From Dictyostelium discoideum (lineage: Eukaryota), in the NCBI GenBank assembly GCA_000004695.1, contig CM000150.2, positions 2,880,001-2,944,000 of the forward strand: a stretch of 64,000 nt of DNA, written 5' to 3'. This document shows positions 7,577 to 49,000 of this stretch, piece after piece (position 1 is the stretch's first letter; each line of letters opens with the position of its first letter). The notes under the pieces were generated by a model, which saw nothing but the letters and a program-made list of their open reading frames with translations, did not search any database and was not told the origin of the DNA. A program made the position numbers and the translations under genes.

Positions 7577-7807
7577 ATGAACTCATCAAATTTAGCATTT
7601 CATGAAGATCAAAATGGTCAATCATTATATTATTCAGACTTACCAATCAGGTCACAAATTTTAAGGGATAAATATAGATTCTATGGTAGAAAAATTATAT
7701 TTTATTTATATTTGGCTTATTTTATAACAGCAATAGAGTTGTATGTATTTTTTATTTAAAAAATATAATATATAAAAAACACACACACAAAAGTAATTTA
7801 TATTTAT

Positions 7808-19652: not shown

Positions 19653-20454
19653 TTTATTTATTTATTTATTTATTTATTTATTTTTTTTATTTTTATTTAT
19701 ATATTTATTTTTGATTATTGATATTATTTTAATGAATGATTATTATTTTTTTTTTTTTTTACATTTTATAGTTTTTATTGTTATCTTAAATAACTCACAA
19801 TCATTCTCAACTATTCTTGAACTATCAATAAATCACATTTTGAGAAAAAAAAAGAAAAATTAAAAAACACCAGAACAAAACAAGTTTTTTTAAAAAGAAT
19901 TTATGGGACAGGAATTTTAAAAATTTTTTTTTTTTTTTACCAAAAATTTTATTTTTAGAATTTAATTATTTTAGCATTTATCTTTTATTTTGAAGGGGAA
20001 AAAATATTGAATTGGTATATTTTTTTTTTTTTTGATTTAAAATTTTGATAAATAAAATTATAAAAAAACAAACACCCAAGATTAAATTCATTTATTTTTT
20101 TTTTTTTTTTGATTTTAAATTATAAAAAATAAAAATAAAATGTAATAATTATTTAATTTAAATTTTATCTTTTCTTAAAAAAAAATAATAAAAAATTTAT
20201 TCTGATGTGATAAGATTTTGGAGAGGTTCAGATTAATTTTATAAAATGAAATTTAAATCAAAAAAAAAATATAATAAAATAAAAAAATAAAAATGAAAAA
20301 AATAAATAAGATTAAGAATAAGAAATAAAAAAAAAAAAAAAAAAAAAAAAAATAAAAAAAAAAAAAAAAAAAAAAAAATAAATAGATAAAAATATGTATA
20401 TTCTTTGTTTTATTTAAATTTTGTTGTACATTTTTAAAAAAATAAAAATTTTAT

Positions 20455-21168
20455 TTAATAAAATTCTTCTTTGATAACTAAATCATTTGACCATTGTTGA
20501 ACGGCCCATTGGTTCTTTTTGACACGATGTTCACCATATGTGAAATCCATATACATTTCATATGCTGTATTATTACCATCAACGAGTAATTTTAATAATT
20601 TTGCTTCATGAATTGTTGCATTATTTACAAAAGATTCTTCAGCTTTACGATTTGCAGCTTTACCAACACGATTTGTTGAATCACCTTTTTCATACATAAT
20701 TATATCTTGATGATAATATTTATCGAATACTTCTAATATTTTATTATCTTGAATACCTTTAATAATTGATTCTAAATTTGATTTGATATTAGTTGATGGT
20801 TCTGGTGTTGATGGTGTTTTAATTTCAACGAATTCTTCTTTAATAATTAAACCATTTGACCATTGTTGGAATGCCCATTGACTCTTTTTGATACGATGTT
20901 CGCCATATGTGAAATCCATATACATTTCATATGCTGTATTATCACCATCAATGATTGTTTTTAATAATTTTGCTTCATGAATTGTTGCATTGTTTACAAA
21001 AGATTCTTCAGCTTTACGATTTGCAGATTTACCGACACGATTAGTTGAATCACCATTTTCATACATTACAATTTCATCATGATAATATTTATCGAATACT
21101 TCTAATATTTTATTGGTTTGGATACCTTTAATAACTGCTTCTAAATTTGCTCTATTATTTGATGACAT
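20455..21168 (-). CDS. SnoaL/NTF2-like tandem two-domain protein. Copy 2 of 3.
   Basis: It is about 95% identical to the copies at 18939 and 22023. The flanking intergenic DNA is also repeated. Confidence 0.6.
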   Translation of the reverse strand: MSSNNRANLEAVIKGIQTNKILEVFDKYYHDEIVMYENGDSTNRVGKSANRKAEESFVNNATIHEAKLLKTIIDGDNTAYEMYMDFTYGEHRIKKSQWAFQQWSNGLIIKEEFVEIKTPSTPEPSTNIKSNLESIIKGIQDNKILEVFDKYYHQDIIMYEKGDSTNRVGKAANRKAEESFVNNATIHEAKLLKLLVDGNNTAYEMYMDFTYGEHRVKKNQWAVQQWSNDLVIKEEFY

Positions 21169-21236
21169 TTTATTTTATTTATTTATTTATTTATTTATAT
21201 ATTTTTTAATTTTTTTTTTTTTTTTTATTTATATAT

Positions 21237-21271
<35 letters not shown>

Positions 21272-22022
21272 TTTTTGATTATTGATATTATTTTAATGAA
21301 TGGTTATTATTATTTTTTTTTTTTTTTACATTTTATAGTTTTTATTGTTATCTTAAATAACTCACAATCATTCTCAACTATTCTTGAACTATCATTAAAT
21401 CATTTTGAGAAAAAAAAAAAAAAATTAAAAAACACCAGAACAAAACAAGTTTTTTTAAAAAAAATTTATGGGAAAATAAAAACATTTTTTTTTTTTTTTT
21501 TTTTTTTTACCAAAAATTTTATTTTTAGAATTTATTTTACCATTTATCTTTTATTTTGAAGGGGAAAAATAAATTTATTGGATTGAATTGGTATATTTTT
21601 TTTTAAAAATTTAAAATTTGGATAAATAAAATTTTAAAAAAAAAAATAGACATTCAAGATTAAATTCTTTTATTTGTTTTTTTTTGATTTCAAATTTATA
21701 AAAAATAAAAATAAAATGTAATAGTTATTTAATTTAAATTTTATCTTTTCTTTAAAAAAAAAAAAATCAGAAATCTATTCTGATGTGATAAAATTTTGGA
21801 GAGGTTCAGATTAATTTTATAAAATGAAATTTAAATAAAAAAAAAAAAAAATAAAATAAAATAAATAAAATAAAATAAATAAATATAAGAAATAAAATAA
21901 AAAAAATTCAACTCAGTTTTTTTTTGAAAAAATAAAAAAACAAATTAATAGATAAAAAATATGTATATTCTTTGTTTTATTTAAATTTTATTGTACATTT
22001 TTAAAAAAAATAAAAATTTTAT

Positions 22023-22736
22023 TTAATAAAATTCTTCTTTGATAACTAAATCATTTGACCATTGTTGAACGGCCCATTGATTCTTTTTGACACGATGTTC
22101 TCCATATGTGAAATCCATATACATTTCATATGCTGTATTATTACCATCAACGAGTAATTTTAATAATTTTGCTTCATGAATTGTTGCATTATTTACAAAA
22201 GATTCTTCAGCTTTACGATTTGCAGCTTTACCAACACGATTTGTTGAATCACCTTTTTCATACATAATTATATCTTGATGATAGTATTTATCGAATATTT
22301 CTAATATTTTATTATCTTGAATACCTTTAATAATTGATTCTAAATTTGATTTGATATTAGTTGATGGTTCTGGTGTTGATGGTGTTTTAATTTCAACGAA
22401 TTCTTCTTTAATAATTAAACCATTTGACCATTGTTGGAATGCCCATTGACTCTTTTTGATACGATGTTCGCCATATGTGAAATCCATAAACATTTCATAT
22501 GCTGTATTATCACCATCTACGATTGTTTTTAATAATTTTGCTTCATGAATTGTTGCATTGTTTACAAAAGATTCTTCAGCTTTACGATTTGCAGATTTAC
22601 CGACACGATTAGTTGAATCACCATTTTCGTACATTACAATTTCATCATGATAATATTTATCAAATACTTCTAATATTTTATTGGTTTGAATACCTTTAAT
22701 AACTGCTTCTAAATTTAATTTATTATTTGATGACAT
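22023..22736 (-). CDS. SnoaL/NTF2-like tandem two-domain protein. Copy 3 of 3.
   Basis: The N-terminal half matches copy 1 (FMDF). The C-terminal half matches copy 2 (IIMYEKGDSTNRVGKAANRK, GEHRVKKNQ). Confidence 0.6.
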   Translation of the reverse strand: MSSNNKLNLEAVIKGIQTNKILEVFDKYYHDEIVMYENGDSTNRVGKSANRKAEESFVNNATIHEAKLLKTIVDGDNTAYEMFMDFTYGEHRIKKSQWAFQQWSNGLIIKEEFVEIKTPSTPEPSTNIKSNLESIIKGIQDNKILEIFDKYYHQDIIMYEKGDSTNRVGKAANRKAEESFVNNATIHEAKLLKLLVDGNNTAYEMYMDFTYGEHRVKKNQWAVQQWSNDLVIKEEFY

Positions 22737-29435: not shown

Positions 29436-30548
29436 TTAATTATTATTATTATTTTTAAAATTTGTATACCATTTTGGTATTATTAAATTAAAATTATCAA
29501 AATGATTTAAAATGATTTTACATCTTTCTTTCATTAATTCAATTTGATTATCATCAATTGATTCAGCCCAAACTATTCCACCAAGACAAGATGTAGCAAC
29601 AAAAGTTGTAAAAGAATACCAAAAATCAGAGGGTGGTTCTTTGTTATTAAAATAACCATCAATTTGACCAACACAAAATGGTATACTTAATCCAACATTA
29701 AAAAATTGAATTTTGTGAAATTCCTGATAACCATAACCAAATTGACTTCTATTAAAATCAATTATACCTAATTTACTAGTATCATTATCATTATTATCAT
29801 TATTATCATTATTATCATTATTATTTTTTATTAATATCATATTACCAAAATGAAAATCATTATGTTTTAAAACTAATTTTGAATTTTGTAAATTTTCATT
29901 TATTTTCACAACTTTTTCTAAATTTAATTTACAATAATCAATTATACATTGGTCATTTTCAAATCTAAATTTACCATTAATATCTTTTTCAAATCTTGAG
30001 ATTACTTCTAACCTTTTTTCTAATCTATCAGTATTAATTATTGGTGGTGGTGGTGGTGGTGGTGGTGGTGTGGTAGTATCATTATTATTATTAATTAATG
30101 ATGATAATGGTATCAAATGAAATCTTTTTAAAATTTTACCAGCATTTAAACCTAATCTATATTGATTTTCAATTGATTCATTAAAGATTGAATCATTAAA
30201 ATCTTCACCTTCAATCCATGTTAGTAACATCCAAACATTCTTTTCTTCATTACACAATCCAATATCAATTGGTTTTGACATTTCAACTTCTAATTTCTCA
30301 TCATCATCATTTAATAATACACTATTAAATATTTTAATTGTTGAAAATTCAATATCCTTCTCTTTAAATAATTTTGATTCTGATATTCTAAGTAATTGAA
30401 ATTTCATTTGTTGTTGTTGTTGTAGTTCTTCTTTTAATTCAACTTTGAATTTTAAATCATTTGAAAATCCTTTATTAATTGGTGTTATGGTTTTCCAATT
30501 ATTAAAATGAGGAATATCTTTTAATATCTCTTCTTTATATGAATTCAT
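29436..30548 (-). CDS. Aminoglycoside-phosphotransferase/choline-kinase-like family protein (PF01636-type).
   Basis: Single 370-aa ORF. It carries the catalytic-loop motif HNDFHFGNMI (H.D....N) and IDFNRSQFGYGYQEF (DF.-type metal-binding motif). Poly-P and (DNN)n inserts are present. Confidence 0.65.
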   Translation of the reverse strand: MNSYKEEILKDIPHFNNWKTITPINKGFSNDLKFKVELKEELQQQQQMKFQLLRISESKLFKEKDIEFSTIKIFNSVLLNDDDEKLEVEMSKPIDIGLCNEEKNVWMLLTWIEGEDFNDSIFNESIENQYRLGLNAGKILKRFHLIPLSSLINNNNDTTTPPPPPPPPPIINTDRLEKRLEVISRFEKDINGKFRFENDQCIIDYCKLNLEKVVKINENLQNSKLVLKHNDFHFGNMILIKNNNDNNDNNDNNDNDTSKLGIIDFNRSQFGYGYQEFHKIQFFNVGLSIPFCVGQIDGYFNNKEPPSDFWYSFTTFVATSCLGGIVWAESIDDNQIELMKERCKIILNHFDNFNLIIPKWYTNFKNNNNN

Positions 30549-31004: not shown

Positions 31005-31890
31005 TTATTTTTGTGGAGTACTCTTTTTAATGTCAGAAGCTAATTTAATGAATGCTTCATCAATTGCAGTTGATTCTTTTGCGCTAGTTTCCATTATTGG
31101 TATATTTAATTCATCTGCAAATTTCTTTGCAATCTTAAAATCAACGGCTCTCTTTGAATTGAGATCACATTTATTACCAACTATTAATTTTAAAACTGAT
31201 GGACTTGCGAATCTATCAACATCGATTAACCATCTCTTTATGCTATTAAAAGAGTCCATTGATGTGATATCATATACAATAATTAAACCATGTGCTCCAC
31301 GATAATAACTTGTTGTAATAGTCTTGAATCTTTCTTGTCCTGCAGTATCCCACTATAAAATATATAAAAATAAAATAAAATAAAAAAATTTTGAGTTAAT
31401 AAAATTATTGTAAAATTGTAGTTATTTTTAATATTTATATAAATAGATATTTATTTTACATACAATTTGTAACTTTATCTTTTTACCATCTAATTCAATC
31501 GTACGAATACAGAAATCAACACCAATTGTTGAAATATAAGAATCAGTGAACCTTGAAATTTTAATTTAATTAATATATTTATTTTATTTATATTTAAAAG
31601 TGAGATGGGTTAGAGATGTTTTTTTTTTGATAATAATAATAATAATAATAATAGTTTATTTCTAGAAATTATTTATTTATTTTATTTTTATTTTTATTTT
31701 TTATTTTAAAAAAAACATACCTATTATCAGCAAAACGTAATAACATACATGATTTACCAACACCAGAATCACCAATTACTAATATTTTTAAAAGCATATC
31801 GTATTCTGGGTGAGATTCACTACCATGAATGAATGATGTCGATGTGGATGAAAATGATCCATTTCCTTCTTTTGATGGACTACAACCCAT
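31005..31890 (-). CDS. Rab-family small GTPase with an N-terminal lipidation motif, 3 exons.
   Basis: Exons are 31890 to ~31721, ~31551 to ~31464 and ~31352 to 31005, with two GTATGT donors. The protein has a P-loop (GDSGVGKS), switch regions ([18 protein letters not shown]), the RabF motif (YYRGAHG) and NKCD. It starts [12 protein letters not shown] and ends ...STPQK, with no C-terminal Cys. Confidence 0.8.
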
Positions 31891-31941
31891 TTAATTAAAT
31901 TAATTAATATATATTATTATACAAAAAAAAAAAAATCAATT

Positions 31942-31977
<36 letters not shown>

Positions 31978-32749
31978 GGAAGAGGAAGAAGAATAAAAAA
32001 AGAATAAATATAAAAAAAAAAAAAAAAAAGGCAAAATATATATATAAATTAAAAATACAATACAAAATTGGGTGTGTGAATTTTTTTTTTTTATTTTTTT
32101 TTTTTTTTTATTATTTTTTTTTTTTTTCAATTTATTTTTTTTTTATTTTTTTACTTTTTTTTTTTTTTTATTTATTTTTTATTTTTGTTTTTTTTTTTTT
32201 TTTTTGCACGAGTCAGAATCAACCAAAAAAAATAAGTTTTAAAAGAAAAATAATATTATAATTTTGTTTTGGGAATTCTTTTTTTTTTTTTTTTTTTTTA
32301 CAAATTTAATTTAAAACTACACATTTTTTCTTTATTTTTTATTTTATAAAACTGAATGAATGAATTCCAATGTATGATTAATAATTATAAATATATTGAC
32401 AGTATTGAGGAGAGAATTTTTTCTATTCTTGAAAAATGAAATAAATAATGGTGAGGATGTAATTAATTGTATTTTGGTTGTTGTAAATTATTATCAAAAT
32501 TTAAATATTTGATATTTTTAAAAAACCTTAGGATGGGAATTCGCCTTGAGAGGAGCCATTCTCGATTGCATATGGAATAGATTTGATGTATTTGGTTTTG
32601 AAACAGGCGAGGCAGAATATCTTGGAATTATAATACTTGGCATTTTTTTTTCTTTTTTTTAATTGTTATTTGTTTTTTAATGAAATAAAAATTATAAATT
32701 TCCTTCATTTTATACTTGATAATATTGTGAATCAAATAACACTGACTAT

Positions 32750-33110
32750 TTTAAAAACTGACACCGGCACTGACACCTCTTGAAAAACCAAAATTATTTT
32801 TTTTTTTTAAAAAAACAAAATACACAACAAACATCTCACGATTTTTTTATAGTCTGGGACAAAATTTCATCAAATACATATGTAAAAGTCTAATAACGCA
32901 TTTAAATGAGACCTTAGCAAATTGTATCACCCAATAAAAAAACATGACACCTTTGCAAAGTGTGTCATCCAGTTGGTTTTCAATGACACCTAAGCATGGA
33001 GGTTTATTGTAATTGTCTCCTAAAAATGGCGCCTTAAGAAAGTGTGTCATCCATTTTTTTTTCAATGACTCCTTAGCATAGTGGTTTATTGTAATTGTCT
33101 CCAAAACGTT
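32750..33110. repeat. GC-richer non-coding block with an ~85 bp tandem duplication and reiterated, partly palindromic (A)TGACACC / GTGTGTCATCC motifs.
   Basis: Similar units occur at 32975-33060 and 33060-33125 (caatgacacctaagcatggaggtttattgtaattgtctcc... versus caatgactccttagcatagtggtttattgtaattgtctcc...). atgacacctttgcaaagtgtgtcat at ~32943 is a near-perfect palindrome. tgacacc occurs at about 32759, 32770, 32944 and 32984. Confidence 0.6.
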
Positions 33111-33153
33111 AGAAGTTAGCAGTTGGTCCAGGGTTCAACTCCCTGAGGGGTCT
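33066..33153 (+). pseudogene. tRNA-like fragment with an intact T-arm and acceptor pairing but no clear anticodon arm. Likely a tRNA pseudogene or tRNA-derived repeat.
   Basis: CAGGG-TTCAACT-CCCTG at ~33129-33145 is a perfect T-stem/loop. The 5' strand GACTCCT (~33066) pairs with the 3' strand AGGGGTC (~33146), with one G-U pair. A D-loop-like AGTGGTT is present. I cannot fold a 17-nt anticodon arm. The fragment sits inside an ~85 bp tandem repeat. Confidence 0.3.
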
Positions 33154-33780
33154 TCCTTTTTGGGGGGGTAACAAAAGTAGATCGCATGTTCGATTCTTAA
33201 AAAATACTGTTAGTATGATTTTTTTTTTTGTTTCTTGAAATATTTGGATTAATTTTCAATATTTAATGAGATTAAAAAGTTAAACAAATATCAGTATATA
33301 TTTTTAATTTCATTAAGTTGTTTTTATTTTTGTTTTATTGTAAAAAAAAAAAAAAAAAAATAGGATTTTGTAAAAAACAAAAAAAAAAACATATAACCTA
33401 ATTAAAAAAAAAAAAAGGGAAATAAATATTCAGAATTTAATTTTGGAATAATAAAATAATCTTGAATTGATTTCTAATAACAGGTAACTATTCCCTTTAG
33501 TTTTTTATATTCCAATATACCAACTCATTGAAATAAAAATGAAAAATTAAAATATTGTCCCCTTCCCAATAGCCAAACACTTGTGGATATTTTTTTAATT
33601 TTTTATTTTTTTTTTTTTTTTTTTTTTTTTGGGCCAATTTTCCATTTCAAAAAAAAACTTTTTTTTTTTTTTTTTTTTTGAATGGTTTTTTATTTTTTAT
33701 TTTTTTTATTTTTTATTTTTTATTTTTTCAATCTCGATGTTTTCGTTTTACCACATTCCAAATTTTAATAATAATTTCAA

Positions 33781-36700
33781 ATGATAAATAAAATTTCTCG
33801 TTTTAAAATATTATTATTGTTTATTTTTATTATTTCATTGACATGTGCTCAAGATGGTAAGTTTTTAATTATTTTCTTTTTTATAAAACATTTGCAAATA
33901 TTGACTTTTTTTTTGAAAAAAAAAAAAAAAAAAAAAAAATTTTAGAGGAATTAATATCAACACCTGAAGGGTATTACGATTTAAAACGGTTTAAAAGATT
34001 TCAACACTATAAAAATATCCAACCCAATGAAGAAGCAGGATATACAGATTTATATTATCCAGATGTTTGTAAAAATGCTATAAGGAATAGAGATGGAGCT
34101 CCAACATTTAATCAGAGAAGCTTTCCAGGTTATACAGGAGTATTCGACACTTTACTAATAACAAAGGGTATTTATCATTGTAAAATTCATAAAAATACAT
34201 CATTTTGAAAAACTTAACATTAACATTTCACCATTATCATTTCATTCAATCAAAGGTACCAATATGACATTGGATTCAACCGGTTTCCTTACTGGTCTGG
34301 GTATCTGGTCACTCTTGACTTTATGTGTTGAAGGAAATTTAACGGTACTTTATAATCCAGATGAATTTTCTTTCGTACCTGTTCATAGGTTAGTTATACT
34401 ACCAGGTGGAACTATAACATCCCATGCAAATTCATTTCTATTCTGGGATACTTACCAAGTTGATGAGAATTTTCAAGAAGAATTAAACAAAAGAGTAAAG
34501 ATTGATCCTTTTAATTTTTTCCCTGGTCTACTAGTCTTGGGAGGAAATTTAAATTTATTTGGTAATAGTCAATTGACTTATACTGCTAAACGATTGAACG
34601 ATACTACATTGGAACTATCAACTCCATTTTTAAATATGAAATTTCTATGGAATAAATATATAATTACAATCTTTACAGAATCAATACCACAAGGTGATGA
34701 TTGTCTTTTTAATATGGATTCAGATAAAAGAACTTTTTACTTAATTAAAACCAACTATGGTACTTGCAATCCATTACGGGAAACAGATAAACTCATGAAA
34801 GTAGTAATCTCATACAACCGATATGAGGATAATTACTCAAGCTATATATCTCTTTTTTCAGATTATTATGGTTTCGAACCAAATGAAGCTTCTATTTTTA
34901 TAACAGGTGATTCAAATGTCTATATTGAAAATTATCTTATTAAAAATTTAGGCAAAACAAAAAATAATGCATACAGTGATACAAAATTAATATTTTCACC
35001 AAATAATACAAGTGAAGTTATAGGGTTTATAAATGGTACCAATCAAAGATTTAGAAGTTCTTTATATATAGAGTTTTCAAATAATGTTATCATTAAAAAT
35101 TGTGTAATTATAGAATCTTCTTCAGAAACAAGATCACCGTTAGTATTTTTTGGTTCAAACGTATATTTATCAGATAATTTAATTTCAAGTAAATCTGGTT
35201 CAAGTTTAATAGCACAATATGGAACTGAAAATATTCAATCTATAAATAATTTTTATTTTCAAAAAGGTGTTTCACATCAAACTGCCTCTCAAATATTAAA
35301 TCCAATTAATATGGATTTTGGAAATGAAGGAAATGGCATTTATTCAGTATCACCAAATCTTTTATCAAGTGATGATTTTTTTATTGGTCAAAATTATTCA
35401 ATTACTTTTAACTTTATTGCCAATAGGTCAAAAATTACTGGTTTTGATCAAGATTGTTATGCACCATGTTTTAGTGATTCAATCAATTTTTCAAATAAAA
35501 TTCAGTATCCTGTAGATTTTAAAATTTTTAATCCAAAGTTTTTACCAACAAATAATACCAATAGCGATTGGTATATTTTAAATATAAATGATAATGGAAA
35601 TCAACCAGGTACCTATTATACAGTAAAAAATTTAACAACTTTAGATCCCGTACAGTTTTCATTGGATAATAGCGCTTTATCCTTTTTAGGTCTAGAAGCA
35701 AGTGAAAATTTTAAAATGAATGGTAATGCCAAAAGATTGGATATTGTTAATTCAATTATCAGTTCAAAAGCTTTAACCAACCAACAACAAATAATTTCAA
35801 AAGTTTCATCATCAGCTATTAGCTTTAAAAATTCTTATATATACAGTAAATTAGGTCAACAAATTACACCTATAGATAATCAGATTTATGGATCATTAAT
35901 TACACCATTTTATTATAATGATTCAGATATTTTAAATCAAGTTAAAATTTTATCAATTTTTCCCAATGTCCCTTTTCAAATTGTATCAGGTTCTATATTA
36001 AATGTTAGCATAAACCTTCAAATTATTTCAACGGCTGATATTTCATGCACTTTCTCTTCAGATAATTCTACTTTTAGTACAACAATTTTGGTTAACCCAT
36101 CAGACGGAAGTTGTGTTTTACCACTTGTTTTTGAAAAAGAAGGTTATTTTAATTTAAAAGTCACATTAAAGATTTCAACATCAAAGGATTATTATTATAT
36201 AGTTGATTTTCCAAAGATTACAGTATATAATGAATATTTATTTTATTCAGGATGGGTAATGATTGATTCAAGCACAGATGAATTTCTATTTGAAGGTAAA
36301 ATATTTAAATCAGGTTGCCAACAACAGGTATTAGGTAATTGTACAATATCAACAAATTCAAAGTTTATAAATGGCTTGCCAAATGTAACAGAAACAGATG
36401 AACTTAATAGATTATTTTCAAGTGGTATAACATCAATCAATCCATATGAACCTGTGACAATTACAATACCAATTGATAAAGAATCAAAAAAGAATCAAAT
36501 CCAATTATTTTTTACTCACCAACCAATTGATATAGAATATAGTCTATTATCAATATATGTAGAAAATCAACCAATATTCCTTTTAGAACAATTACAAAGT
36601 GGTTTAGGTTCAACATTTAAAAATTTAACATTTAATTATGAAAATTCAAAATCACTAGAAATAATCAACATTTCTTTCACAACAAGAGGTGATATCTATT

Positions 36701-37675
36701 TAACTTCAATGGCGGTTTATTCATCAGCCATCCCAATAATCGTTACACCAACACCAACATCAACAACATCAACACCAACACCAACATCAACAACAACATC
36801 AACACCAATTCCGACAACAACACCTACAACAACACCAAAAACATCAAAAACAACCTCCAAAAACAAATTAAAAATTGCTTTACCAATTTGCCTTTTTGCT
36901 CTTTTGGTTGCTGTTGGAGTTTTAATATGTTTTATTTTCAGAAAAAAAAAACAAAAGAAACAAAAATTAGATAATAATATGGAGGATGGAAGTGAGATGT
37001 CTTCAATTAAAATTAAAAAAGAAAATTATAATTCTTTTAACAAGTTTAAAGAGTCAACAGTATTTAAAAACGATGATTTTAAAAATTATTCCAATCCAAC
37101 CGAAACAACAATTTATAGCACTTCCGATTCACTTTTAAACTTTGTTGGCTCTGACTTTTTAAATTACTCTGACCCAAACATCCCCTTATCCTTTAGTAAA
37201 AATATTTTAGAATTTGGATTAAAAGGTTCAAAATGCGATATCAATACCTTCCTTTCCGATTCTTTACGAATAACAAATAACTCTAATATTATATTATGTA
37301 TTTGTACAGTTCTTCCAAGAAATGACTCTGGTGAAGTAAGAATTTTTTGTTTTTTTATTATTATTATAATGAATTTAATTAACTAATCAATAATGAATTT
37401 TTTTTTCAGGTAAATGTTAGTCCAGATTCTTTTGAATTAGATCCAAATCAATCAAGAGAGATAGAATTTTCTTTAAAGTTAAATTGCACAACAAGAGTAG
37501 GTTGAATTTTTATAATTGAATTATTATAATTTAGTTAATATATATACTAACTGCACATCTATTTATATCCTAGTTTTTTGAAAGATTTGCTATTGAGGCT
37601 AGACATACTCACAGTTTCAAGTCAATTCACACTCACCTTTTCATTCATGTTGAATCTAAGATTTCCTCTAAAGTA

Positions 37676-37713
<38 letters not shown>

Positions 37714-38690
37714 GATTTTAACTTAACTTTTCTTTAGTTGGATATAAAAGAGATTGAAGTTAAAGAATTGATTTCACAAAATAATTTATCAACTGTTAAT
37801 ATAGCAAATTATAGAGGTTTACAAGTTGTTTTGAGAAAGATTAAAACTCATAGCGCAAATTACACCAAAACTTACTCTCAAGCAATCAAAAAATTCTACA
37901 CAGAAATGGATATACTCTCAAAGTTAAAAAACAAAAATATTGTTTCATTTATTGGTTGCACTCACGACTCTTCTCACCTTTGGATTGTTACTGAATATGC
38001 ACCATTGGGATCTCTTAGTTCTCTTATCCATCAAAAGAAAGAAAAACTTTCATTAATTCAAAAAGTCAAGTAAGTAAAAAAAAAAAAAACAATAATATTA
38101 TAATTTAGTTCTTTTTTCTAATATTATTAATAGGTTAATGTTAGATACAGCAAAGGGGTGTGAATTTCTACACTCAAATGATATTACGAATTGTAATATA
38201 AAATCAAATAATTTATTACTCTTTTCAACAATGGAAAAAGATGATGTTTGTGTAAAAATTTCAGATTTTGGTATAAAAAGTAATTATTATTATTTTTTAA
38301 ACAATTGTTATTTTTTATACAATGATTATTTCTAACTTTTTACAAAAAAAAAAAAATAAATAAATAAAAATAGAATTTGAAGTACAAAACCAAAATGAAA
38401 AAGAAATTTTTAAAGATGAAAAAGATCAAAAGCTAATTGATGTTTATGAATTTGGAATTACATTCTATGAAACAATGCTTGAAGAAACTCCAGAAAACCT
38501 ATCTAATTTAATATTGGAAGGTGAGAGACCAACTCTTGATTTGGAAAAATTAGATGCAGACATTAGAAACATAATTGAAAGATGCTGGAACCAAAACAAA
38601 AGGTCAACATTTTCAGAGATTAGTATTTCACTAAAAGAAAAATATACAAAATTGTTGGAGAAAAATAATGAATTAATACAAGAGAATTAA
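33781..38690 (+). CDS. Receptor-like protein A: signal peptide, parallel beta-helix ectodomain, transmembrane helix, degenerate cytoplasmic pseudokinase. Eight exons.
   Basis: Exons are 33781-33856 ([25 protein letters not shown]), 33946-34167, 34256-37335, 37410-37496, 37574-37672, 37738-38069, 38134-38279 and 38374-38690. The ectodomain has PbH1-like repeats (…[18 protein letters not shown]…[21 protein letters not shown]…[12 protein letters not shown]…). A T/P-rich stalk leads to the TM helix [23 protein letters not shown]. The kinase-like region keeps subdomain II-V remnants (VVLRKIK…[20 protein letters not shown]…[13 protein letters not shown]), the DFG (ISDFG) and [11 protein letters not shown]. 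It lacks the Gly loop and the HRD catalytic loop ([12 protein letters not shown] instead). Confidence 0.7.
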
Positions 38691-38769
38691 TTTAAAAACT
38701 AACAATAAAAACAAGATAATTTATTATTATCTATGAAATTAGAAATATTTTTTTTTTTTAAATTATTGT

Positions 38770-38945
38770 TAATATTATTTGGATTACTACAAATGATATT
38801 AAAATAGAGATAGTAGATTTAGAGTTAATAGTAGGTGAAGCTGCAATTAAGTGTTAAACACTATTATTATTTGTTGTAGTTGTTGTCGATTTACTTGATT
38901 TTACAACTGGTTGGAACTCCAGATGTTGTACCGTTTGTAATGGAA
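38770..38945 (-). pseudogene. Truncated 3' fragment of a GPI-anchored surface-protein gene, paralogous to 42116-42300.
   Basis: 38760-38940 aligns almost base-for-base with 42110-42300, including the reverse-strand region that encodes the hydrophobic tail ...ISILISFVVIQIILTII* and the S/T-rich stalk. It then diverges, and no upstream ORF follows. Confidence 0.55.
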
Positions 38946-39136
38946 CAAGGAAAATAAAAAATAAGATATTAACAAATGTTTTTATTGAAGATAATTTTGG
39001 TAAAAACCAATTAAAATTTTTTTTTTCTTTTTTTCAATCTCTTAGAAATATGCCTTATTTTTTTTTTTTTTTTTGGATGGCATTCGTTTTTTTTTTTTTG
39101 GAAGACATTTTTTTTTTTTTTCTTATATTCAACAAA

Positions 39137-41830
39137 ATGAAATTAGGACAAAGGATATTTATTTTGATATGCTTAGTTATCAACTCTTTCTCTAATTGTA
39201 AGTCAACAATTAATTAAATATTATTCATTTTTTTATTAAAAAAAAAAAAAAGACTAAAAAAAAAAAAAAAAAAGGCAGTCTTGTGGTTTCACCAAATGGT
39301 TATTATAACATTTATCGAGAAAATAATTTTGGGAATATTTTAAATTTAAAGCCAACAGCAGAAAACAAATTACAAGATTCATATTATCCAGGTGTTTGTA
39401 GCAATGCAGGAAAAAATAAAGATGGTGTGACTAGTTTTTTAATATCCTCTTTCTCTATTTTTTTTTATAAATTACATCAACGTTATTGTTACAAAAGGTA
39501 TGTAAAATTTTATTTTAAATAGAATCATATTATGAAATATAAAATATTAACCAAATGCAATTAATTAACCAATTAGGTTCACATATGGTATTGGGAGATT
39601 TGGAATATTCTAAAATGAGTAATGTTAGAACTTTATTGAATATAGTTTGTGTTGAAGGCTCATTATTATTTTCAACACAAAGTGTTTTATATATGAGTGT
39701 CTTGGTAATGTTACCTGGTGGTAGTTTTGAATGTTTAGATTGCACAATTCGTTTTCGTGAACTACATCCAGCAAGCTCTCAGATCGATCCATTTGGTTTT
39801 TTCCCTGGTGTACTTGCTTTAGGTGGCTCGTTATCTCTTATTGGGAAGCAAAAAACTACATATTCTGCGACCAATATTGGTGGAAATATATTAGAGGTTC
39901 CAGATCTTTCAACATTAGATAGTTTCAATGGTTACAGTTTATCAATATTTAGTGAATCATTTCCTTTGGGAAAATCTTCAACCTTTTCCCATTATTTAAA
40001 TCGAATAAGTGTATTAGATTTGGTTATTCCGAAAACAGATAAAAATATAAGAGTCTTCTTTAATCCAAATTTTTCATTTTTCAACTCAGACAAAATCAGA
40101 TACCGCTTCAATTCATATCACAGGAAATACCAATGTATATAGAAAATTTTTACATCAATTCTTTTGGAAAGACTTCAAATGATCAATATAGCGATACAGA
40201 ATTGGTATTCTCACCTGATGATCCAAATTTAATTACAGAGTTTATAAATGGTAACAAAGATTTAGAAATTCATTATATATAGAGCATTCAAATAATGTTA
40301 CTATAAAAAATAGCGTTATACTTGAAACAAAAGAAACAAGATCACCATTAGTAATTTTTGGTTCAAATGTAAATATATCAGGTAATATAATATCAAGTAA
40401 TTCTGGTTCAAGTATTACAGGATTTGATAAAGATTGCTATTCACCATGCTATAATGATTCGATAAGAGTTTCAAGTAAAGTTCAACATTTATTAGTTCAT
40501 CAAATTACTCTGAGTTTTCTTTTTAGAATCAGCGAAACAGGTAGTAAACAAAGTTCAATTTATAAAATAAAAAATTCAAATTTAAGTTATCCAATTTCAG
40601 TATTATTAGAAAACAACGCATTTATATTAGATAATGTTTATGGTTTTGGTGATTTTAGTAATAATGGTATGATTAAAAGATTTGATATAATAAACTCAAC
40701 ATTAGATCCTTCTGCATCATCATCAATAAGTTTAAACAATTTTTCAAAAGCAATTTGTATTCAAAACTCATTTATGGATTTTAAATCATTTCAAAAACAA
40801 AACAATCAATTATTACACCTTACCTATACTATTTCGAAAATACAATGAATCTTATAAAAGTATCAAAAATGTATCCAAATGTAAACCATCAAATTTTAGC
40901 AGGTACAGTACTAAATATGGGTATTGAAATTATAATTATAGCACCATTATTTGGGAAAATGGATTGCATATTTGAAGATGAAAGTAGTGTTCAAACAATA
41001 CCATTTGATAAATCAAGTAATTCATGTGTTTTACCATACACATTTAAAAATGAAGGTTCATTTAATGTACGAGTTACATTATCACTAAATAACTCTGGAG
41101 ATAGTGTATTTCAAGTATATTTTCCAATGGTTACAGTATTTAATATATTCATTTTATTCAGGATGGGCAATGATTGATTCAAATATAGAAAAAGAAATAA
41201 TAATAGATGGTAATATATTTAAAAAAGGTTGTCAACAACAGGTATTAGGTAATTGTACAATATCAACAAATTCAAAGTTAATAACAGGTTTACCAAATGT
41301 GACAGAATCAGATGAACTTAATAGATTATTTTCAAGTGGTATAACATCTATCAACCCATATGAACATGTAACAATAACAATACCAATTGATAAAGAATCA
41401 AAAAAGAATCAAATCCAATTATTTTTCACACTAACCAATTGATATAGAATCTAGTCTATTATCAATATATGTAGAAAATCAACCAATATTCCTTTTAGAA
41501 CCATTACAAAGTAATTTAGATTCAACATTTAAAAACTTAACATTTCATTATGAAAATTTAAAATCTCAAGAAATAATCAACATATCTTTCACAACAAGAG
41601 GTGATATCTATTTAACTTCAATGGCGGTTTATTCATCAGCCATACCAATAATCGTTACACCAACACCAAAAACATCAAAAACTACCTCCAAAAACAAATT
41701 AAAAATCGCTTTACCGATTTGCCTTTTTGCTCTTTTGGTTGCTGTTGGAGTTTTAATATGTTTTATTTTAAGAAAAAAAAAAAACAAAAATTAACTAATA
41801 TTATGGAAGATGGAAGTGAGATGTCTTCAA
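39137..41830 (+). pseudogene. Receptor-like kinase pseudogene B: multiple frameshifts, in-frame stops, internal deletions and loss of the kinase exons.
   Basis: The signal exon MKLGQRIFILICLVINSFSN and the next exon (VSPNGYYNIYRENNFGNILNLKP…) match gene D. The track splits the body into broken ORFs at 39555-40142, 40845-41177 and 41104-41442, with the stop 'tatatatag' at ~40270. About 230 bp are deleted relative to D between '…SGSS' and 'ITGFDKDCYSPCYND'. The C-terminal stalk and TM (…[15 protein letters not shown]…[23 protein letters not shown]) instead match gene A. Only a short kinase 3' remnant (~41990-42050, …NELTQEN*) survives. Confidence 0.7.
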
Positions 41831-42115
41831 TTAAAATTAGTGTTTCACCTTTATCCAACTTGGGATAAAAAATGTTTTTTTTTTTTTTTTTTGATTACTA
41901 CCTTTTCAGTCCTTATTTTTTTTTGCGATCCAAAAAAAAAATTAAAAAATAAAATTCGGATTACAAATTAAAAAGGAATTTGTTTATCTTAAAGAAAAAT
42001 ATATAAAACTGTTTGGGAAAAGTAATGAATTAACACAAGAGAATTATTTTAAAACTAACAATAAAAACAAGATAATTTATTATTATCTATGAAATTAGAA
42101 ATATTTTTTTTTTTT

Positions 42116-45100
42116 TTAAATTATTGTTAATATTATTTGGATTACTACAAATGATATTAAAATAGAGATAGTGGATTTAGAGTTAATAATAGGTGAAGCT
42201 GCGCTTAAGTGTTCACCACTATTATTATTTGTTGTAGTTGTTGTCGAAGAGTCTGTTGATTTACTTGATGTTTCAACTGGTGCGCCAGTTGTTGTACCGC
42301 TTGTAATTGGAATTGAATAAGGAATTGTATTATTTGAAAAAACTTCAATACCGCACATTGGTATTGAGTACTTGAGATTATCAGATGCCCACTCAATCAT
42401 GAGTGTAACATCAGTTGAACCACTATTCCAATAGAATGGCCCAAATTTTTGATATTTTTGATAAGGTGAAGAAGGTCTTGAGTATGGATCTTGATATTTG
42501 CCATTAATCTTAATTGTGAAAATGGGTAGTGAGTTGACGATGTTGGCTCCAGTGTAATCTGCATTATAAGAGTAGATGAAAAACTTGTATTCTGCATTTG
42601 CTGGTAAAGTTAAATTTACTGAACTTTTAATTCCTAATGTAACATCATTTGATAAATAAGATGTTAACATTGATACTTCATCAGTTGCGCTTCTGATAGT
42701 TCCAGTTGTAGATTCAGTTACCGTTGATGGAATTGGTGATACTTTACTGTATTTACCAGTTACCTTACATATTCCACTAATCCAACCACATTTAGTCCAT
42801 TGGTTGCCTAAAATTGATAGTGCTTTGGAAGATGAACTAAAATCTGGAGTTAAATCTATACCAAGGTAAAACAATTGAACACCAGAATCAACTATATAGG
42901 TTTGAGCATAATATGGTCCAACAATAGATGGATCATTTGGAGCATATAATAGATTGGATGAAACAATAACTGTATAAGGTCCATTAGCTTTTGGGAAATT
43001 GGCAACCTTGGAAATAGGAGAAGCACTTGAAGGGTAATCTATTGATTGAATTACTTCGTTTACAATATATTCTATATTTTGATTTGAACCTAAAAGGTAA
43101 TCGACGTTTGGTTTAAATGATAATAAAAGTTGATTTGAAGTTATTGAATTTACCATTGGGTTAAAATTATATAATGGATATAAACCAAGGACCCCTTCAA
43201 ATATATCTAATTTTGTACCATTTACATTAGAAAGGTATAGCTGTGTGGTATATTTCTTTAAGAATAAAGATGAACTAGAATAATGAGAGAAGAGAGAGTT
43301 TTTAATTGATAAATAACCACACGAAAATGTTTCAGAAAAGAAAACATAATTTCCTTTGGCAATGGAATTAACAATTGATATCGCATTGTATTTGCCATTT
43401 AGAGTGTTTGGAGCATTAGTAAATACTTTCTCATTTGAAGATAGAGAGTTTGCAATATATGGAGAATCATAAAAGATTTCAATGTTTGCTTGGTTTCCGG
43501 TTGAACCAAGAGTTAATGATGGTTGCTGTCGAATATACCAACCAAATTTTATATTAATTTTTAGTGGGGGTTGAGTTCCAATTGGATATCTAACACGTAC
43601 TTCAGTTTCACCTGCAAAGAAATTACTCAAAAAAACAACATTGTTCCAAACATTATTAGTTTTGTAATCAGCAGTGTTATCTTGAGTTAATCCAGAGTGT
43701 ATACCTATCAGTTTATCTGATGCTAAACCCAATGTTGAATATCTACTTTGAATTGGGATTACATGAATTGCACCTCCTTTGAATTTACCTTCAAATGCAT
43801 TTCCTTCATATGTAGAGTAGGGTGATGATGTTATTATACCAACATTTATATAATCTATGTCTGGATAGGTTCTATATGATGAAACTATGCTGGTATCCGA
43901 GTATAAAGAAATGAACCCATTATAGCTAATATCAAATTGCTCTGTTCCATATAATAATGAAATACCACTGATACCTTTTCTCAATGCAAATGCATTACCA
44001 GATATTGTACCAAATGAACGTTTAGCACCAATAAAAGCTCTTGGGATTTCACTTTCTCTTAAAGTATCAATGTAGTCATAATCCATGAACATATTATTCT
44101 TAATATTTACTGCTTCTTTATTATGTAATAAAGTTATTGGATATCTATCAGGTATATTTTTTCCATATTTAAGAACATTATAGTTTGAATTTAATATATT
44201 ATCATCGAGAACATTGCTTGTTGTATGTCCAATATCATAAAAAACACTGTTTTGAATATTAACAATCGATCCAAGAGTAAAAGTCATTGAACTATTATAA
44301 AACCCTTTGATAAATACATTTTTAGACCAAGGTCTCATTACAATATAACCACTTCCACCAAATATTTCTCCTATTATTTCACTTGGGGATGCTGCGATAG
44401 CACTAGTATAATATTGATCCATTGAATAATTAATATTGTAATTTGGATCATAACTTCCACTCATTCTAAATAAAGGTAATCCTGGACTTGAATAAGAAAA
44501 AGGAGTACGGAGGAATGAACCTCCATAAGAACCAGATTTTGATGTGTTCCTTCCTGCCCATATTGACTCAGTGTTAAAACCAATAATGTTAACTGTACCG
44601 CCCAAGGAGATAAAAGGAGATGTTTGAAGAGGATCCCAAGATGGGAAATTCCAATATTCAAAAGCGGGTAAAAATATTGTGTGATTAAAACTTGAAGATG
44701 GTTTTGATTCAAATACACCAGTTGGGAATATAATTGTTTTGGAGACTGTGTAATATGTATTAGCATTTGGATCAAGAACCAATTTTCCTTTAATAATAAT
44801 TGTATAAAGCCAACTGACTCTTCCATAAAACGTAACTGTTACTCCTTCTGGAATAACCAAAACATTTTTTAACAATAATAAACTTCCTGAAGGGTTTTCG
44901 TTAATGTTTATTGGTGGTGTAAATAAATCAGTGGTAAGAAAGTTTGTGTCACTATATATTGTGCAACTTGATTTGAAAGTGTATTTTACTGTATTTGGAT
45001 TTGACTCCAAGTCTGGATAAAAATCACCTTTGTAGTTTGGGTTTTCTGGATAAAAATTAATCTTGAAATGTGGCTGCCCATTAATATTTACACGTGGAGA

Positions 45101-45271
45101 GTTCCAATCGAATGAATAAAGTTCTTGAGAGTAAGTTTCTTATTTTTTTAAATTTATTAAGATTAGTAAATCTATAGGGAAAAAAAAATAAAAAATAAAA
45201 ACAGAAAATTTTAAATAAAAGTATATACTCTGATATAATATAATGACCAGCGTAACTAATAACTTTATCAT
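42116..45271 (-). CDS. Large secreted GPI-anchored cell-surface protein, about 1000 aa, Ser/Thr/Asn-rich, 2 exons.
   Basis: Exon 1 (~45229-45271) reads ATGATAAAGTTATTAGTTACGCTGGTCATTATATTATATCAGA, giving the signal peptide MIKLLVTLVIILYQ, with a GTATAT donor. Exon 2 (42116 to ~45123) is the 964-aa track ORF extended upstream (…KLYSFDWNSPRVNINGQPHFKINFYPENPNYKGDFYPDLESNPNTVKY…). The C-terminus is an S/T-rich stalk (…TTGAPVETSSKSTDSSTTTTT…) followed by a hydrophobic tail ISILISFVVIQIILTII*. That arrangement is typical of a GPI-attachment signal. Confidence 0.65.
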
Positions 45272-45959
45272 TGTAAAGAATAAAATTAATTTCTTTAAAG
45301 CGAAATCTGAAAATCAGATATTGTAAATTGTCAAAGGAAATTAAATTAGTTATTTCTTTTCATTTAAATAATATAATTAAGGGGTATAGACTATATGTTT
45401 GAAAGGCATCTTTAAAATTAAAGGAAAAAATGAAGAATTAGTATATCATTTTAAATAACTGTTCAATATTTAAATGAAAAAAATATATTTGAATTTTGGT
45501 TTTTTAATTTTTAGTTTTTAAATTTTTTTTTATTTTAAAAACAACTTTTTTTAAAATAAAAAATTGCAATTATTAACCACCTATAGCAGAAATGAATATT
45601 TCCAGTTTTTAAACGTTTTTTTTTTTATTTTTTTTTTTTTTATTATATTTTTCTACATGATTTTGTGTATTTTTATGTTTTTTTTTTTTTATTTAAATTT
45701 TGAAAATTTAATTTTCACTTTTTTTTTTTTTTTTTTTTTTTATCTTGAAATTTTTTTATTTTGTTTTAAGATCAAAAAAAAAAAAAAAAAAAAAAAAATG
45801 TTAATTCAATGATTATAAACATCATTTCTGAAATTTAATTTATTTCTTTCCTATGAAATAATAATTAAACACCACACCCCAACCATTAATTTTTTTATTT
45901 TTATTTTTATTTTTTTTTTCAAAATCTTCGCATTTTTGATTTTTTTTTTCTGAAATCTT

Positions 45960-45994
<35 letters not shown>

Positions 45995-46041
45995 CACATA
46001 CGACATTTTTTTTTTTTTTTTCTTATATATTGCTCCACAAG

Positions 46042-49000
46042 ATGAAATTAGAACAAAGGATATTTTTTTTAATATGCCTAGTTATCAACTCTTTCTCTAA
46101 TTGTAAGTCTACAATAAATTTATTTAATATTTTTCACATTTTTACTAACCTTTTAAAATAAAAAATAAAAAAATAAAAAATAAAATAATAAAATAATAAA
46201 AAAAAGGTAGTCTTTTGGTTGCTCCAGATGGTTATTATAACATTTACCGAGAAAATAAAATTGAAAATATTTTAAATTTAAAACCAAATGGTAACAAATC
46301 ACAAGATTCATATTATCCAGATGTGTGTAGTAAAGCGGTAAAAAATAAAGAAGGTGTAAAAAGTTTTATCTTATCTTCATTCCCTCTTTCAACTAAAGAG
46401 TATGCTAACGTTATTGTAACAAAGGGTATGTAGATTTTATTTTTATTTTTTATAGTAAATTATAGTATATTTATAAATATTAACAATAAGCAATTAATTC
46501 CTAGGTTCACATATGACATTGGGTGATGGAGAATATCATCAAATATTTAATATCAATAGATTTTTGAATATAGTTTGTGTTGAGGGTTCACTTGTATTTA
46601 GTACAAAAGATGTTGTATATATGAGTGCGTTGGTAATATTACCTGGTGGTAATTTTGAATGTATAGATTGCACCATCAAATTTCGAGATCTATATCCAAC
46701 CAACTCATTAATTGACCCATTTGGTTTTTTACCTGGAATTATTACTTTGGGAGGTTCATTATCTCTTTTAGGAAAGCAAAAAACTGTGTATAGTGCAGTT
46801 TTAATAGATGAAAATATATTAGAGGTTCAGGATATTTCATCACTAGATATTTTCAATGGTTATAGTTTATTTATTTTTAGCGAATCATTTCCTTTGGGAA
46901 AGGCATCAACTTTTACTTTTAATTCAAATCAAATAAAAGTTTTGGAAATCAAAATACCAAAAACAGATAAAAGCATTAGAGTATTTTTTTATTCAAGATT
47001 TTCTACTTTCTCAACTTCAACTACTGCTTCAATTCATATCACAGGTAACTCAAATGTGCATATCGAAAACTTTTATATAGACTCTTTTGGGAGGACAACA
47101 AACGATCAATATAGCGATACAGAATTGATTTTCTCTCAAGATGATCCAAATTTAATTACTGGGTTTATAAATGGTAGCAATCAAAGATTTAGAAGTTCTT
47201 TATATATAGAGCATTCAAATAATGTTACCATAAAAAATAGTGTTATACTTGAAAATAGAGGAGAAACAAGATCACCATTAATATTCTTTGGTTCAAATGT
47301 AAATATATCAGGTAATATAATATCAAGTAAATCTGGCTCAAGTTTAATAGCGCAATATGGAACTGAAAATATTCAATCAACAAATAATTATTATTCATTA
47401 TCTTTACCACTTTTAAAATCATTAAATTCAACTCTTGATAGTATGGATTATGGAAATGAAGGAAATGGTATTTTTTCGATATCGCCAAAAATAAATTCTA
47501 TTAATGATATATTCAATGGGCAAATAATAGCAATCAATCATATAATATTATCAGATAGATCAAGTATTACAGGATTTGATAAAGATTGCTATTCACCATG
47601 CTATAATGATTCGATAAGAGTTTCAAGTAAAGTTCAACATTCAGTGGAATTTAAAATAACAGGATCAACATTTATTAGTTCATCAAATTACTCTGAAAGT
47701 AGTTTTCTTTTTAGAATCAGCGAAACAGGTAGTAAACAAAGTTCATTTTATAAAATAATAAATTCAAATTTAAGTTATCCAATTTCAGTATTGTTAGAAA
47801 ACAATGCATTTATATTAGATAATGTTTATGGTTTTGGTAATTTTACAATTAATGGTCTTATTAAAAGATTGGATATAATAAACTCAACATTAGATCCTTC
47901 TGTAACATCATCAATAAGTTTAAGCAATTTTTCAAAAGCAATTAGTATTCAAAATTCATTTATGGATTATAGATCATTTCAAAAACAAAACAATCAAATC
48001 TATGGATCAATTATTACACCTTACCTCTACTATTTCGAAAATACAATGAATCTTATAAAAGTATCAAAAATGTATCCAAATGTAAACCATCAAATTTTAG
48101 CAGGTACAGTACTAAATATGGGTATTGAAATTATAATTATAGCACCATTATTTGGGAAAATGGATTGCATATTTGAAGATGAAAGTGGTATTCAAACAAT
48201 ACCATTTAATAAATCAAGTAATTCATGTGTTTTACCATACTTATTTAAAAATGAAGGCTCATTTAATGTACGAGTTACATTATCACTAACGAAATCTTTA
48301 GATAATATTATATTTCAAGTATATTTTCCAATGGTTACAGTATTTAATATATATTCATTTTATTCAGGATGGGCAATGATTGATTCAAATATAGAAAAAG
48401 AAATAATAATAGATGGTAATATATTTAAAAAAGGTTGTCAACAACAGGTATTAGGTAATTGTACAATATCAACAAATTCAAAGTTAATAACAGGTTTACC
48501 AAGTGTAACAGAATCAGACAAACTTAATAGACTATTTTCAAGTGGTATAACATCTATCAACCCATATGAACCTGTAACAATAACAATACCAATTGATAAA
48601 GAATCAAAAAAGAATCAAATCCAATTATTTTTCACTCACCAACCAATTGATATAGAAACCAGTCTATTATCAATATATGTAGAGAATCAACCAATATTCC
48701 TTTTAGAACCATTACAAAGTAATTTAGATTCAACATTTAAAAATTTAACATTTCATTATGAAAATTCAAAATCATTAGAAAAAATCAAAATTACATTTAT
48801 AACAAGAGGCGATATTTATTTAACATCTACAGCGATTTATTCATCAACTAACCAACCTATATATAACGAAGTTATTGGTATAAATGAACAATTAAATATA
48901 TTAGCAATTGTACTACCAATAACGATTTCATTGTTTGCAGCGGCATCAATATTGGCTGGTTATTTAGTAATTAAAAAATATAAAAAACCAAACATGTATT

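Follow-up and report, generated by a model that had tools for sequence, protein, structure and literature searches.

Partial upstream copies of a probable intron-containing tRNA-Trp(CCA) gene in an AT-rich intergenic region of Dictyostelium discoideum

The 64-kb stretch of the Dictyostelium discoideum genome analyzed here (assembly GCA_000004695.1, contig CM000150.2, positions 2,880,001 to 2,944,000 of the forward strand; hereafter the window) is extremely AT-rich. It contains a GC-richer block resembling a transfer RNA (tRNA) within a 1.9-kb gap without genes, which is bordered by a Rab-like GTPase gene on one side and by a 112-aa gene followed by a kinase gene on the other (Table 1). In 200-bp windows, the GC content was 0.25-0.40 over 32400-33300 versus 0.075-0.16 in the flanks (32000-32300 and 33200-33500), which bears out the contrast described in an earlier annotation made from the letters alone (the sequence-only reading). 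Within the gap (31900-33770), no long open reading frame (ORF) and no Pfam domain were found. The results presented below make it very probable that a functional nuclear intron-containing tRNA-Trp(CCA) gene forms the core of the block and that the tRNA-like parts upstream of it are debris of partial self-duplication at the DNA level. The gene is an already known kind of object and not a new RNA or repeat family.

The tRNA-Trp(CCA) gene and its polymerase III signals

ARAGORN called a tRNA-Trp(CCA) gene from genomic DNA at 33067-33153 (+ strand). In agreement, a 1.3-kb search with the Rfam tRNA model (RF00005) and laxer filters gave a score of 44.8 bits versus a gathering score of 29 (E 5.6e-8); the alignment covered the full model (1-71) with a 14-nt insert directly after the anticodon (after CUCCAA). 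The Rfam check of the tRNA-like block that had been proposed earlier was thus positive. With the 13-nt intron excised, the remaining 74-nt sequence was recognized by ARAGORN as a standard cloverleaf Trp(cca) with a restored 5-bp anticodon stem. The gene has a 7-bp acceptor stem (pairing GACTCCT/AGGGGTC) and the T-arm CAGGG-TTCAACT-CCCTG with a GTTCAAC loop, both present as the sequence-only reading had described them, and a weak D-stem (G-U, C-G, A-U, U.U). That reading had assigned these elements to a tRNA-like 3′ half. The relation to a tRNA stands, but the half is no orphan: the gene is complete because the matching 5′ half directly precedes the supposed 3′ half, which is exon 2, and exon 1 is the last copy of the upstream repeat. 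The suggestion of a degenerate tRNA gene did not hold either, as the ARAGORN call, the Rfam score and the cloverleaf describe a full intron-containing gene with exons that are invariant in five genomes.

Signals for RNA polymerase III (Pol III) lie at the expected places (Table 1). The internal A box matches the general consensus TRGCNNAGTGG. It starts at +8, where the A box is fixed (PMC5391098), and the internal B box is an exact match to the Dictyostelium consensus GTCnnnnGTTCRAnYC (PMC3159450). The shorter motif GTTCRAnYC has only three matches in the window (both strands, 128 kb), two of which are the internal B box and, 55 bp beyond it on the same strand, an external B box (ex-B); GGTTCRAnT(C/T) is kept at the place of the ex-B in all five genomes. 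An ex-B is found ~41 bp downstream of 66% of the D. discoideum tRNA genes (PMC3159450). The locus accordingly shares with the D. discoideum nuclear tRNA genes carrying an ex-B (Hofmann et al. 1991, cited in PMC3159450; Winckler laboratory, TRE5-A) the internal B box and a second GTTCRAnYC ~35 bp downstream without the GTC signature. It also shares their role as a landmark for tRNA-targeting retroelements, with an insertion at the D. firmibasis orthologue (see below). We agree with the sequence-only reading on this point: TRE retrotransposons target landmarks of this type. There is no essential difference from these genes; the window locus is without an inserted TRE element, and a search of 31900-33770 for a TRE5, TRE3 or DGLT-A insertion, which would sit about 50 bp upstream or about 100 bp downstream of a tRNA gene, revealed no long ORF, no Pfam domain and no insertion with a target-site duplication.

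By standard biology, TFIIIC would bind the internal A and B boxes, probably also the ex-B, and would position TFIIIB about 30 bp upstream of the gene. Pol III would then transcribe the 87-nt gene and terminate at the T5 run, after which the ends of the pre-tRNA would be trimmed by RNase P and RNase Z, the intron removed by tRNA splicing endonuclease and ligase, and CCA added. Peffley and Sogin (1981, Biochemistry) reportedly cloned a tRNA-Trp gene of D. discoideum that was interrupted by 13 bp of intervening sequence and lay in association with repetitive DNA; that clone is said to agree with the window gene in the isoacceptor and in a 13-nt intron directly 3′ of the anticodon.

Table 1 Features of the intergenic region and its borders (window coordinates)
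Feature	Position	Strand	Remarks
tRNA-Trp(CCA) gene	33067-33153	+	87 nt including discriminator U; ARAGORN, Rfam RF00005
Exon 1	33067-33104	+	part of tRNA-Trp gene
Intron AACGTTAGAAGTT	33105-33117	+	13 nt after anticodon, canonical 37/38 position
Exon 2	33118-33153	+	part of tRNA-Trp gene
Internal A box TAGCATAGTGG	33074-33084	+	+8 to +18, read from sequence
Internal B box GTCCAGGGTTCAACTC	33126-33141	+	exact match to consensus
T5 run, Pol III terminator	33157-33161	+	3 nt past gene; T-run kept in all five genomes
External B box (ex-B) GTTCGATTC	33188-33196	+	35 bp downstream of tRNA 3′ end, without GTC signature
82-bp tandem duplication	32940-33103	+	two units, 32940-33021 and 33022-33103, 83% identity
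Pseudo 5′ half S3 GACACCTAAGCATGGAGGTTTATTGTAATTGTCTCCT	32985-33021	+	in unit 1; mutated A box, would-be anticodon CCT
Mini copies S1, S2	32908-32932, 32946-32970	+	5′ half without D-loop segment; start-to-start 38 bp; repeat family D2
Mini copy S4 GGCGCCTTAAGAAAGTGTGTCATCC	33028-33052	+	-39 to -15 flank of functional gene; followed by T9 run 33054-33062
Short fragments S0a, S0b starting GACACC	32760-32789	+	S0a at 32760, S0b 32772-32789 GACACCTCTTGAAAAACC; motif search
GC-richer non-coding block	32307-32737		separate from tRNA-derived repeats; comparison with D. cf. discoideum
Spurious 85-aa ORF, TTG start	32847-33104	-	crosses repeats, overlaps 38 nt of tRNA gene
Rab-like GTPase gene	31005-31890	-	one border of 1.9-kb gap
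112-aa gene	start ~33771		other border of 1.9-kb gap
Kinase gene	start ~34254		follows 112-aa gene

Conservation of the gene and turnover of its partial copies

The orthologous loci of four other genomes were collected using an adjacent APH-family (aminoglycoside phosphotransferase-like) gene as anchor; its orthologues are named Dictyostelium discoideum, D. cf. discoideum, D. citrinum and D. firmibasis. The loci compared, each of ~21 kb, were those of an NCBI assembly contig (GCA_054883475.1, L001) that is 99.65% identical to the window over 19375-40558 (21 kb), of a diverged D. discoideum lineage (L002), and of D. cf. discoideum (L003), D. citrinum (L004) and D. firmibasis (L005). The gene order kinase, gap, Rab-like GTPase, APH was kept across them.

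A tRNA-Trp(CCA) gene was present in the syntenic gap of every fetched genome (two further lineages of the D. discoideum complex, D. citrinum and D. firmibasis). A tRNA-Leu(caa) call in D. cf. discoideum was rejected, being the tRNA-Trp gene read in a shifted register. In the five-genome alignment, both exons were invariant (0 substitutions at 74 exon positions), and variation within the gene was limited to three columns, all of them in the intron (3 substitutions at 13 positions). The terminator T-run and the ex-B were kept, both flanks were divergent, and the upstream flank diverged fast. Invariant exons beside a variable intron and variable flanks are the signature of a functional, spliced tRNA gene and of purifying selection on the mature sequence. 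This pattern also bears on the idea that the gene is a conserved-looking pseudogene or a tRNA-derived element, for which the weak D-stem, the discriminator U and the miss in the whole-window Rfam run described below might be cited. With A and B boxes, terminator and ex-B intact, a score above the Rfam threshold, and not a single exon substitution between rapidly diverging flanks, we regard this idea as hardly credible.

In D. firmibasis (7235-7589 of the locus), a 331-bp GC-rich, poly(A)-tailed insertion follows immediately after the ex-B of the orthologous gene. An internal repeat (about 110 bp) lies within it, and perfect direct repeats of 12 bp (AATCTGGTAGAA when read on the tRNA strand) border it on both sides. 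The insertion resembles a retroelement, short or 5′-truncated, that targets tRNA genes and has produced a target-site duplication; such an insertion would be expected at a Pol III locus that these elements use.

Upstream of the gene, Tandem Repeats Finder reported 1.8 copies of period 82 with 88% matches at 32957-33106; thus, the tandem repeat of the sequence-only reading was recovered, with a period of 82 bp instead of the ~85 bp given there. Each of the two units consists of 45 bp of 5′ flank and the tRNA positions +1 to +37 (-45 to +37), and unit 2 continues into the functional gene. The tetranucleotide AAAC opens unit 1 (32940-32943) and recurs immediately past the end of unit 2 (33104-33107). 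Besides the pseudo 5′ half S3 in unit 1, which has no B-box motif nearby, three mini copies of 25 nt each (S1, S2 and S4) and the two short fragments S0a and S0b were identified. The heptamer TGACACC occurs four times on the + strand (32759, 32771, 32945 and 32984), and TGACTCC occurs at 33066. The cluster of five (A)TGACACC copies reported earlier therefore exists, with the fifth member reading TGACTCC. Five of the nine whole-window matches to TGACWCC (both strands) fall within 314 bp on one strand, the expectation for the whole window being 3.7. When anchored on tRNA +1, all TGAC(A/T)CC-like sites are copies of the gene's own 5′ end, in register with its 5′ flank.

The inverted partners described in the sequence-only reading were present as well. 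The sequence GTGTGTCAT was found twice in the window (32960 and 33042) and nowhere else, and the near-perfect palindrome ATGACACCTTTGCAAAGTGTGTCAT at 32944-32968 has outer arms of 7 bp and inner arms of 5 bp with one bulged base; the near-palindrome ATGACACC...GTGTGTCAT is made by S2. The palindromes owe their existence solely to a chance complementarity, within the minis, between GACAC from the acceptor stem and GTGTC from the mutated anticodon stem.

The array differed between lineages. S0 to S4 are common to the window and the 99.65% identical assembly. The diverged D. discoideum lineage has three tandem minis with a start-to-start distance of 38-40 bp and a different, non-palindromic sequence (GACTCCTTAGGATAGTATTTCACCTC), as well as one further complete 5′ half about 740 bp upstream; S0a/S0b are missing at the homologous place. 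In D. cf. discoideum, a single diverged copy about 510 bp upstream reaches 8 nt into the intron, and the D. citrinum and D. firmibasis loci contained no partial copies. The array is most likely non-functional duplication debris, since its number, sequence and position shift while the adjacent gene stays identical. No copies of the repeat units were detected outside this intergenic region in the window or in the five related 21-kb loci, and no other tRNA-Trp locus turned up when the two halves of tRNA-Trp (5′ and 3′) were used in two metagenome scans. In place of the SINE-like (short interspersed element-like) dispersed repeat suggested by the sequence-only reading, the DNA covered points to a local partial self-duplication. 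Although tRNA-like sequence outside a complete tRNA gene is shared with tRNA-derived SINEs, the window units have no B box and no poly(A) tail with target-site duplication, no dispersed copies were seen in the DNA covered, and the copies are in register with the flank of the parent gene.

All of the upstream tRNA-like debris is best explained by tandem duplications, at the DNA level, of a segment from about -45 to the anticodon loop. An older copy would have lost the D-loop segment and been amplified at 38-bp spacing (S1, S2 and S4), and a later 82-bp duplication bounded by AAAC microhomology, by slippage or a microhomology mechanism, would have added S3. The units appear to have been copied as DNA and not via a Pol III transcript, because they hold the 45-bp flank with a T4-T9 run. 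The partial copies are expected to be silent, as they have no B box and T-runs lie just after them. Head-to-tail partial copies beside the parent, promoter loss and fast decay are shared with tRNA pseudogene fragments formed by local tandem duplication, a general phenomenon whose remnants are well known, for example, in organelle genomes. Unlike those remnants, the copies in the window are nuclear, comprise only the 5′ half with 5′ flank, and were re-amplified at 38-40 bp in some lineages.

Weighing of the duplication model and its alternatives

Several observations weigh against a functional tRNA gene with simple duplication debris. When the whole 64-kb window was run against Rfam at gathering thresholds, no hit was obtained at the tRNA-Trp gene. 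The miss is apparently a speed-filter effect of the intron, because the 1.3-kb run scored the gene above the gathering score. The discriminator base (33153) is U in all five Dictyostelium genomes; the cytoplasmic tRNA-Trp of yeast and human has A73, a base that the eukaryotic Trp-tRNA synthetase uses as an identity element. The order of the duplication events is ambiguous, and in D. cf. discoideum and D. citrinum the native upstream flank can be aligned with S4 as well. Moreover, partial copies arose or moved several times in three lineages, which is more than a single accident predicts.

A retroposition model was considered as well, in which the partial copies are the 5′ leader and exon 1 of a pre-tRNA, retroposed by tRNA-gene-targeting non-LTR machinery and inserted about 45-50 bp upstream; alternatively, they could stem from TRE5-type integration or repair that went wrong at this site. 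At -45, the left edge of the 82-bp unit falls inside the 37-50 bp integration window of TRE5-A (PMC5391098, PMC3159450), target-site alterations after integration of 5′-truncated TRE5-A have been documented (PMC3159450), each unit stops at the anticodon loop or the start of the intron, close to where exon 1 ends, an A-rich run follows each mini of the diverged D. discoideum lineage, and the copies recur in three lineages, always in the orientation of the gene. On the other hand, a Pol III transcript would neither start in the 45-bp 5′ flank of the unit nor read through its T4-T9 run, and no retroelement sequence, reverse-transcriptase ORF or target-site duplication was found at the window locus. 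Runs of A also occur natively in the anticodon loop (CCAAAAC) and in the AT-rich flank, and the AAAC microhomology at both breakpoints fits simple slippage. We therefore consider the model as a whole very unlikely; such an origin is unlikely for the 82-bp unit, and the minis might conceivably have arisen in this way. Nor is it likely that the locus is a recurrent hotspot of same-orientation partial self-duplication, with the arrays as the footprint of a specific mechanism and not of random slippage, even though, in three D. discoideum-complex lineages, every independent or re-amplified copy begins within the 5′ flank and breaks off in the anticodon loop or at the start of the intron, in the interval from the A box to the B box. 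If true, such a hotspot might mark a site of breaks or template switching set by bound TFIIIC/TFIIIB-Pol III (replication-transcription conflict) or, alternatively, might be caused by nicking by tRNA-targeting retroelements at about -45.

A different function was considered for the TGACACC/GTGTGTCAT array, namely a cis-regulatory array of transcription factor-binding sites that serves the neighboring genes transcribed by RNA polymerase II (Pol II) or the tRNA gene itself. GT/CA-rich half-sites are bound by the Dictyostelium G-box binding factor, and the array motifs bear a resemblance to such sites as generally described. The motifs are strongly clustered in inverted pairs, the repeat region folds somewhat better than shuffled sequences (z about -2.1 on both strands), and Pol II genes lie on both sides of it. 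The motifs are nevertheless accounted for by homology to the tRNA 5′ half. The minis of the diverged D. discoideum lineage read GACTCC...TTTCACC and form no palindrome, and the single diverged copy in D. cf. discoideum and the lack of copies in D. citrinum and D. firmibasis stand against conserved flanking genes and a conserved tRNA. With an array that is not kept between lineages, neither the transcription factor-binding array nor the structured non-coding RNA locus of the sequence-only reading was supported, and a regulatory array appears extremely improbable.

The GC-richer block at 32307-32737 was examined separately. It is about 90% identical to D. cf. discoideum and has GC at exon level without an ORF. 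Together with a low-scoring Rfam hit for DdR15 on the minus strand (25.3 bits, E 1.3), this could point to an unannotated small RNA, for instance a box C/D small nucleolar RNA (snoRNA) related to DdR15, or to a short protein, encoded by the block and/or by the minus strand of 32851-32992. The score of 25.3 bits is far below the DdR15 (RF01565) gathering score of 70, however, and the matched DNA is absent from the diverged D. discoideum lineage and D. cf. discoideum; the DdR15 candidate was rejected as sub-threshold and not conserved. In a sliding comparison of the window with D. cf. discoideum, the identity was 0.72-0.91 in intergenic and 0.91-0.99 in coding DNA, so that, judged from this comparison, the block is conserved at the ordinary (neutral) intergenic level of the species pair. 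It is absent from the diverged D. discoideum lineage, D. citrinum and D. firmibasis, indels of 1-2 nt versus D. cf. discoideum break all its frames, and no gene is called there in annotated assemblies. The block gave no Pfam match, folded no better than shuffled sequences (z -0.7 to +1.4), and had no paralogue in the window or the related loci; tblastn of its six-frame translations against the remainder of the window and these loci returned nothing. A small RNA or short protein is thus highly improbable, and we regard the block as dispensable non-coding DNA with no detectable function, which may be a mobile-element relic.

Further candidates for this block did not withstand inspection. Alignment scores for an old duplicate of the tRNA 3′ flank with ex-B (repeat families D7/I3) did not exceed those of shuffled sequences or the window background. 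A spliced small gene in 32340-32665 would require a 49-nt GTAA...TAG intron that is not frame-compatible, with the frames in addition broken by the 1-2-nt indels, and the Pfam and tblastn results speak against a protein or transposable-element relic. A replacement segment in the diverged D. discoideum lineage had only the left border in common with the block. In that lineage, a long (TTTA)n microsatellite and unrelated AT-rich DNA (about 7660-7760 of the locus, with the distant pseudo 5′ half on one side and the mini array on the other) replace the block of the window and D. cf. discoideum. The 85-aa ORF across the repeats had already been judged unconvincing. In line with this judgment, it starts with TTG on the minus strand, has no Pfam match and is not called as a gene in the annotated assembly, and its DNA is not conserved in the diverged D. 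discoideum lineage or D. cf. discoideum.

A likeness to the class I RNAs of Dictyostelium was also considered. These RNAs have a DUSE motif [AT]CCCA[CT]AA about 60 nt upstream and an 11-nt motif CCTTACAGCAA. The mini copy S1 holds CCTTAGCAA, which superficially resembles the latter as generally defined, but this resemblance is that of a tRNA acceptor stem with U8-A9 and D-stem. No match to CCTTACAGCAA, taken in its general definition, was found within 2 mismatches in 32300-33300. The DUSE search proposed earlier was likewise negative, with no match to the general definition on the + strand near or upstream of the block.

Beyond a correct annotation, the preferred reading of a tRNA-Trp gene with duplication debris matters little, as this is a standard Dictyostelium Pol III gene and the tRNA genes of the genome are routinely catalogued. 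It shows that a default-filter Rfam run on a large window can lose intron-containing tRNA genes and that "palindromic motif arrays" can be mimicked by partial self-duplications of a tRNA gene. If anything is mildly unusual, it is the frequency of 5′-partial copies at one locus in close lineages. Rapid lineage-specific turnover of the 5′ half beside a perfectly conserved gene illustrates, neatly if on a small scale, how duplication and decay proceed at a Pol III locus, with a minor possible use in studies of genome instability at tRNA genes or retroelement target sites.

Neighboring genes

The lineages labelled D. discoideum have APH proteins that are only 92% identical, and the tRNA intergenic region is heavily rearranged between them. 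The APH-family gene itself (29436-30548, - strand) is intron-less and encodes 370 aa. Its orthologues were found only in close Dictyostelium relatives, and the next-best relatives are proteins from Clostridium and other Firmicutes (33-39% identity), making the gene a candidate for horizontal transfer from bacteria.

Kinase paralogues at 41119-48846 comprise DNA segments that are 75-100% identical to the tRNA-adjacent kinase gene (L001 1-5671, corresponding to about 34900-40550 of the window), indicating a probable recent local duplication of this gene family. Three tandem SnoaL-like paralogues of 237 aa each (18939-22736, - strand; about 88-96% identical DNA) vary in number among the related genomes; the fetched loci show 1-3 of them. 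The DUSE-like motif TCCCATAA is present in exact form at 31973-31980 (- strand), 83 nt upstream of the start codon (ATG at 31890) of the Rab-like GTPase gene, and more DUSE-like matches lie upstream of the three SnoaL-like paralogues.

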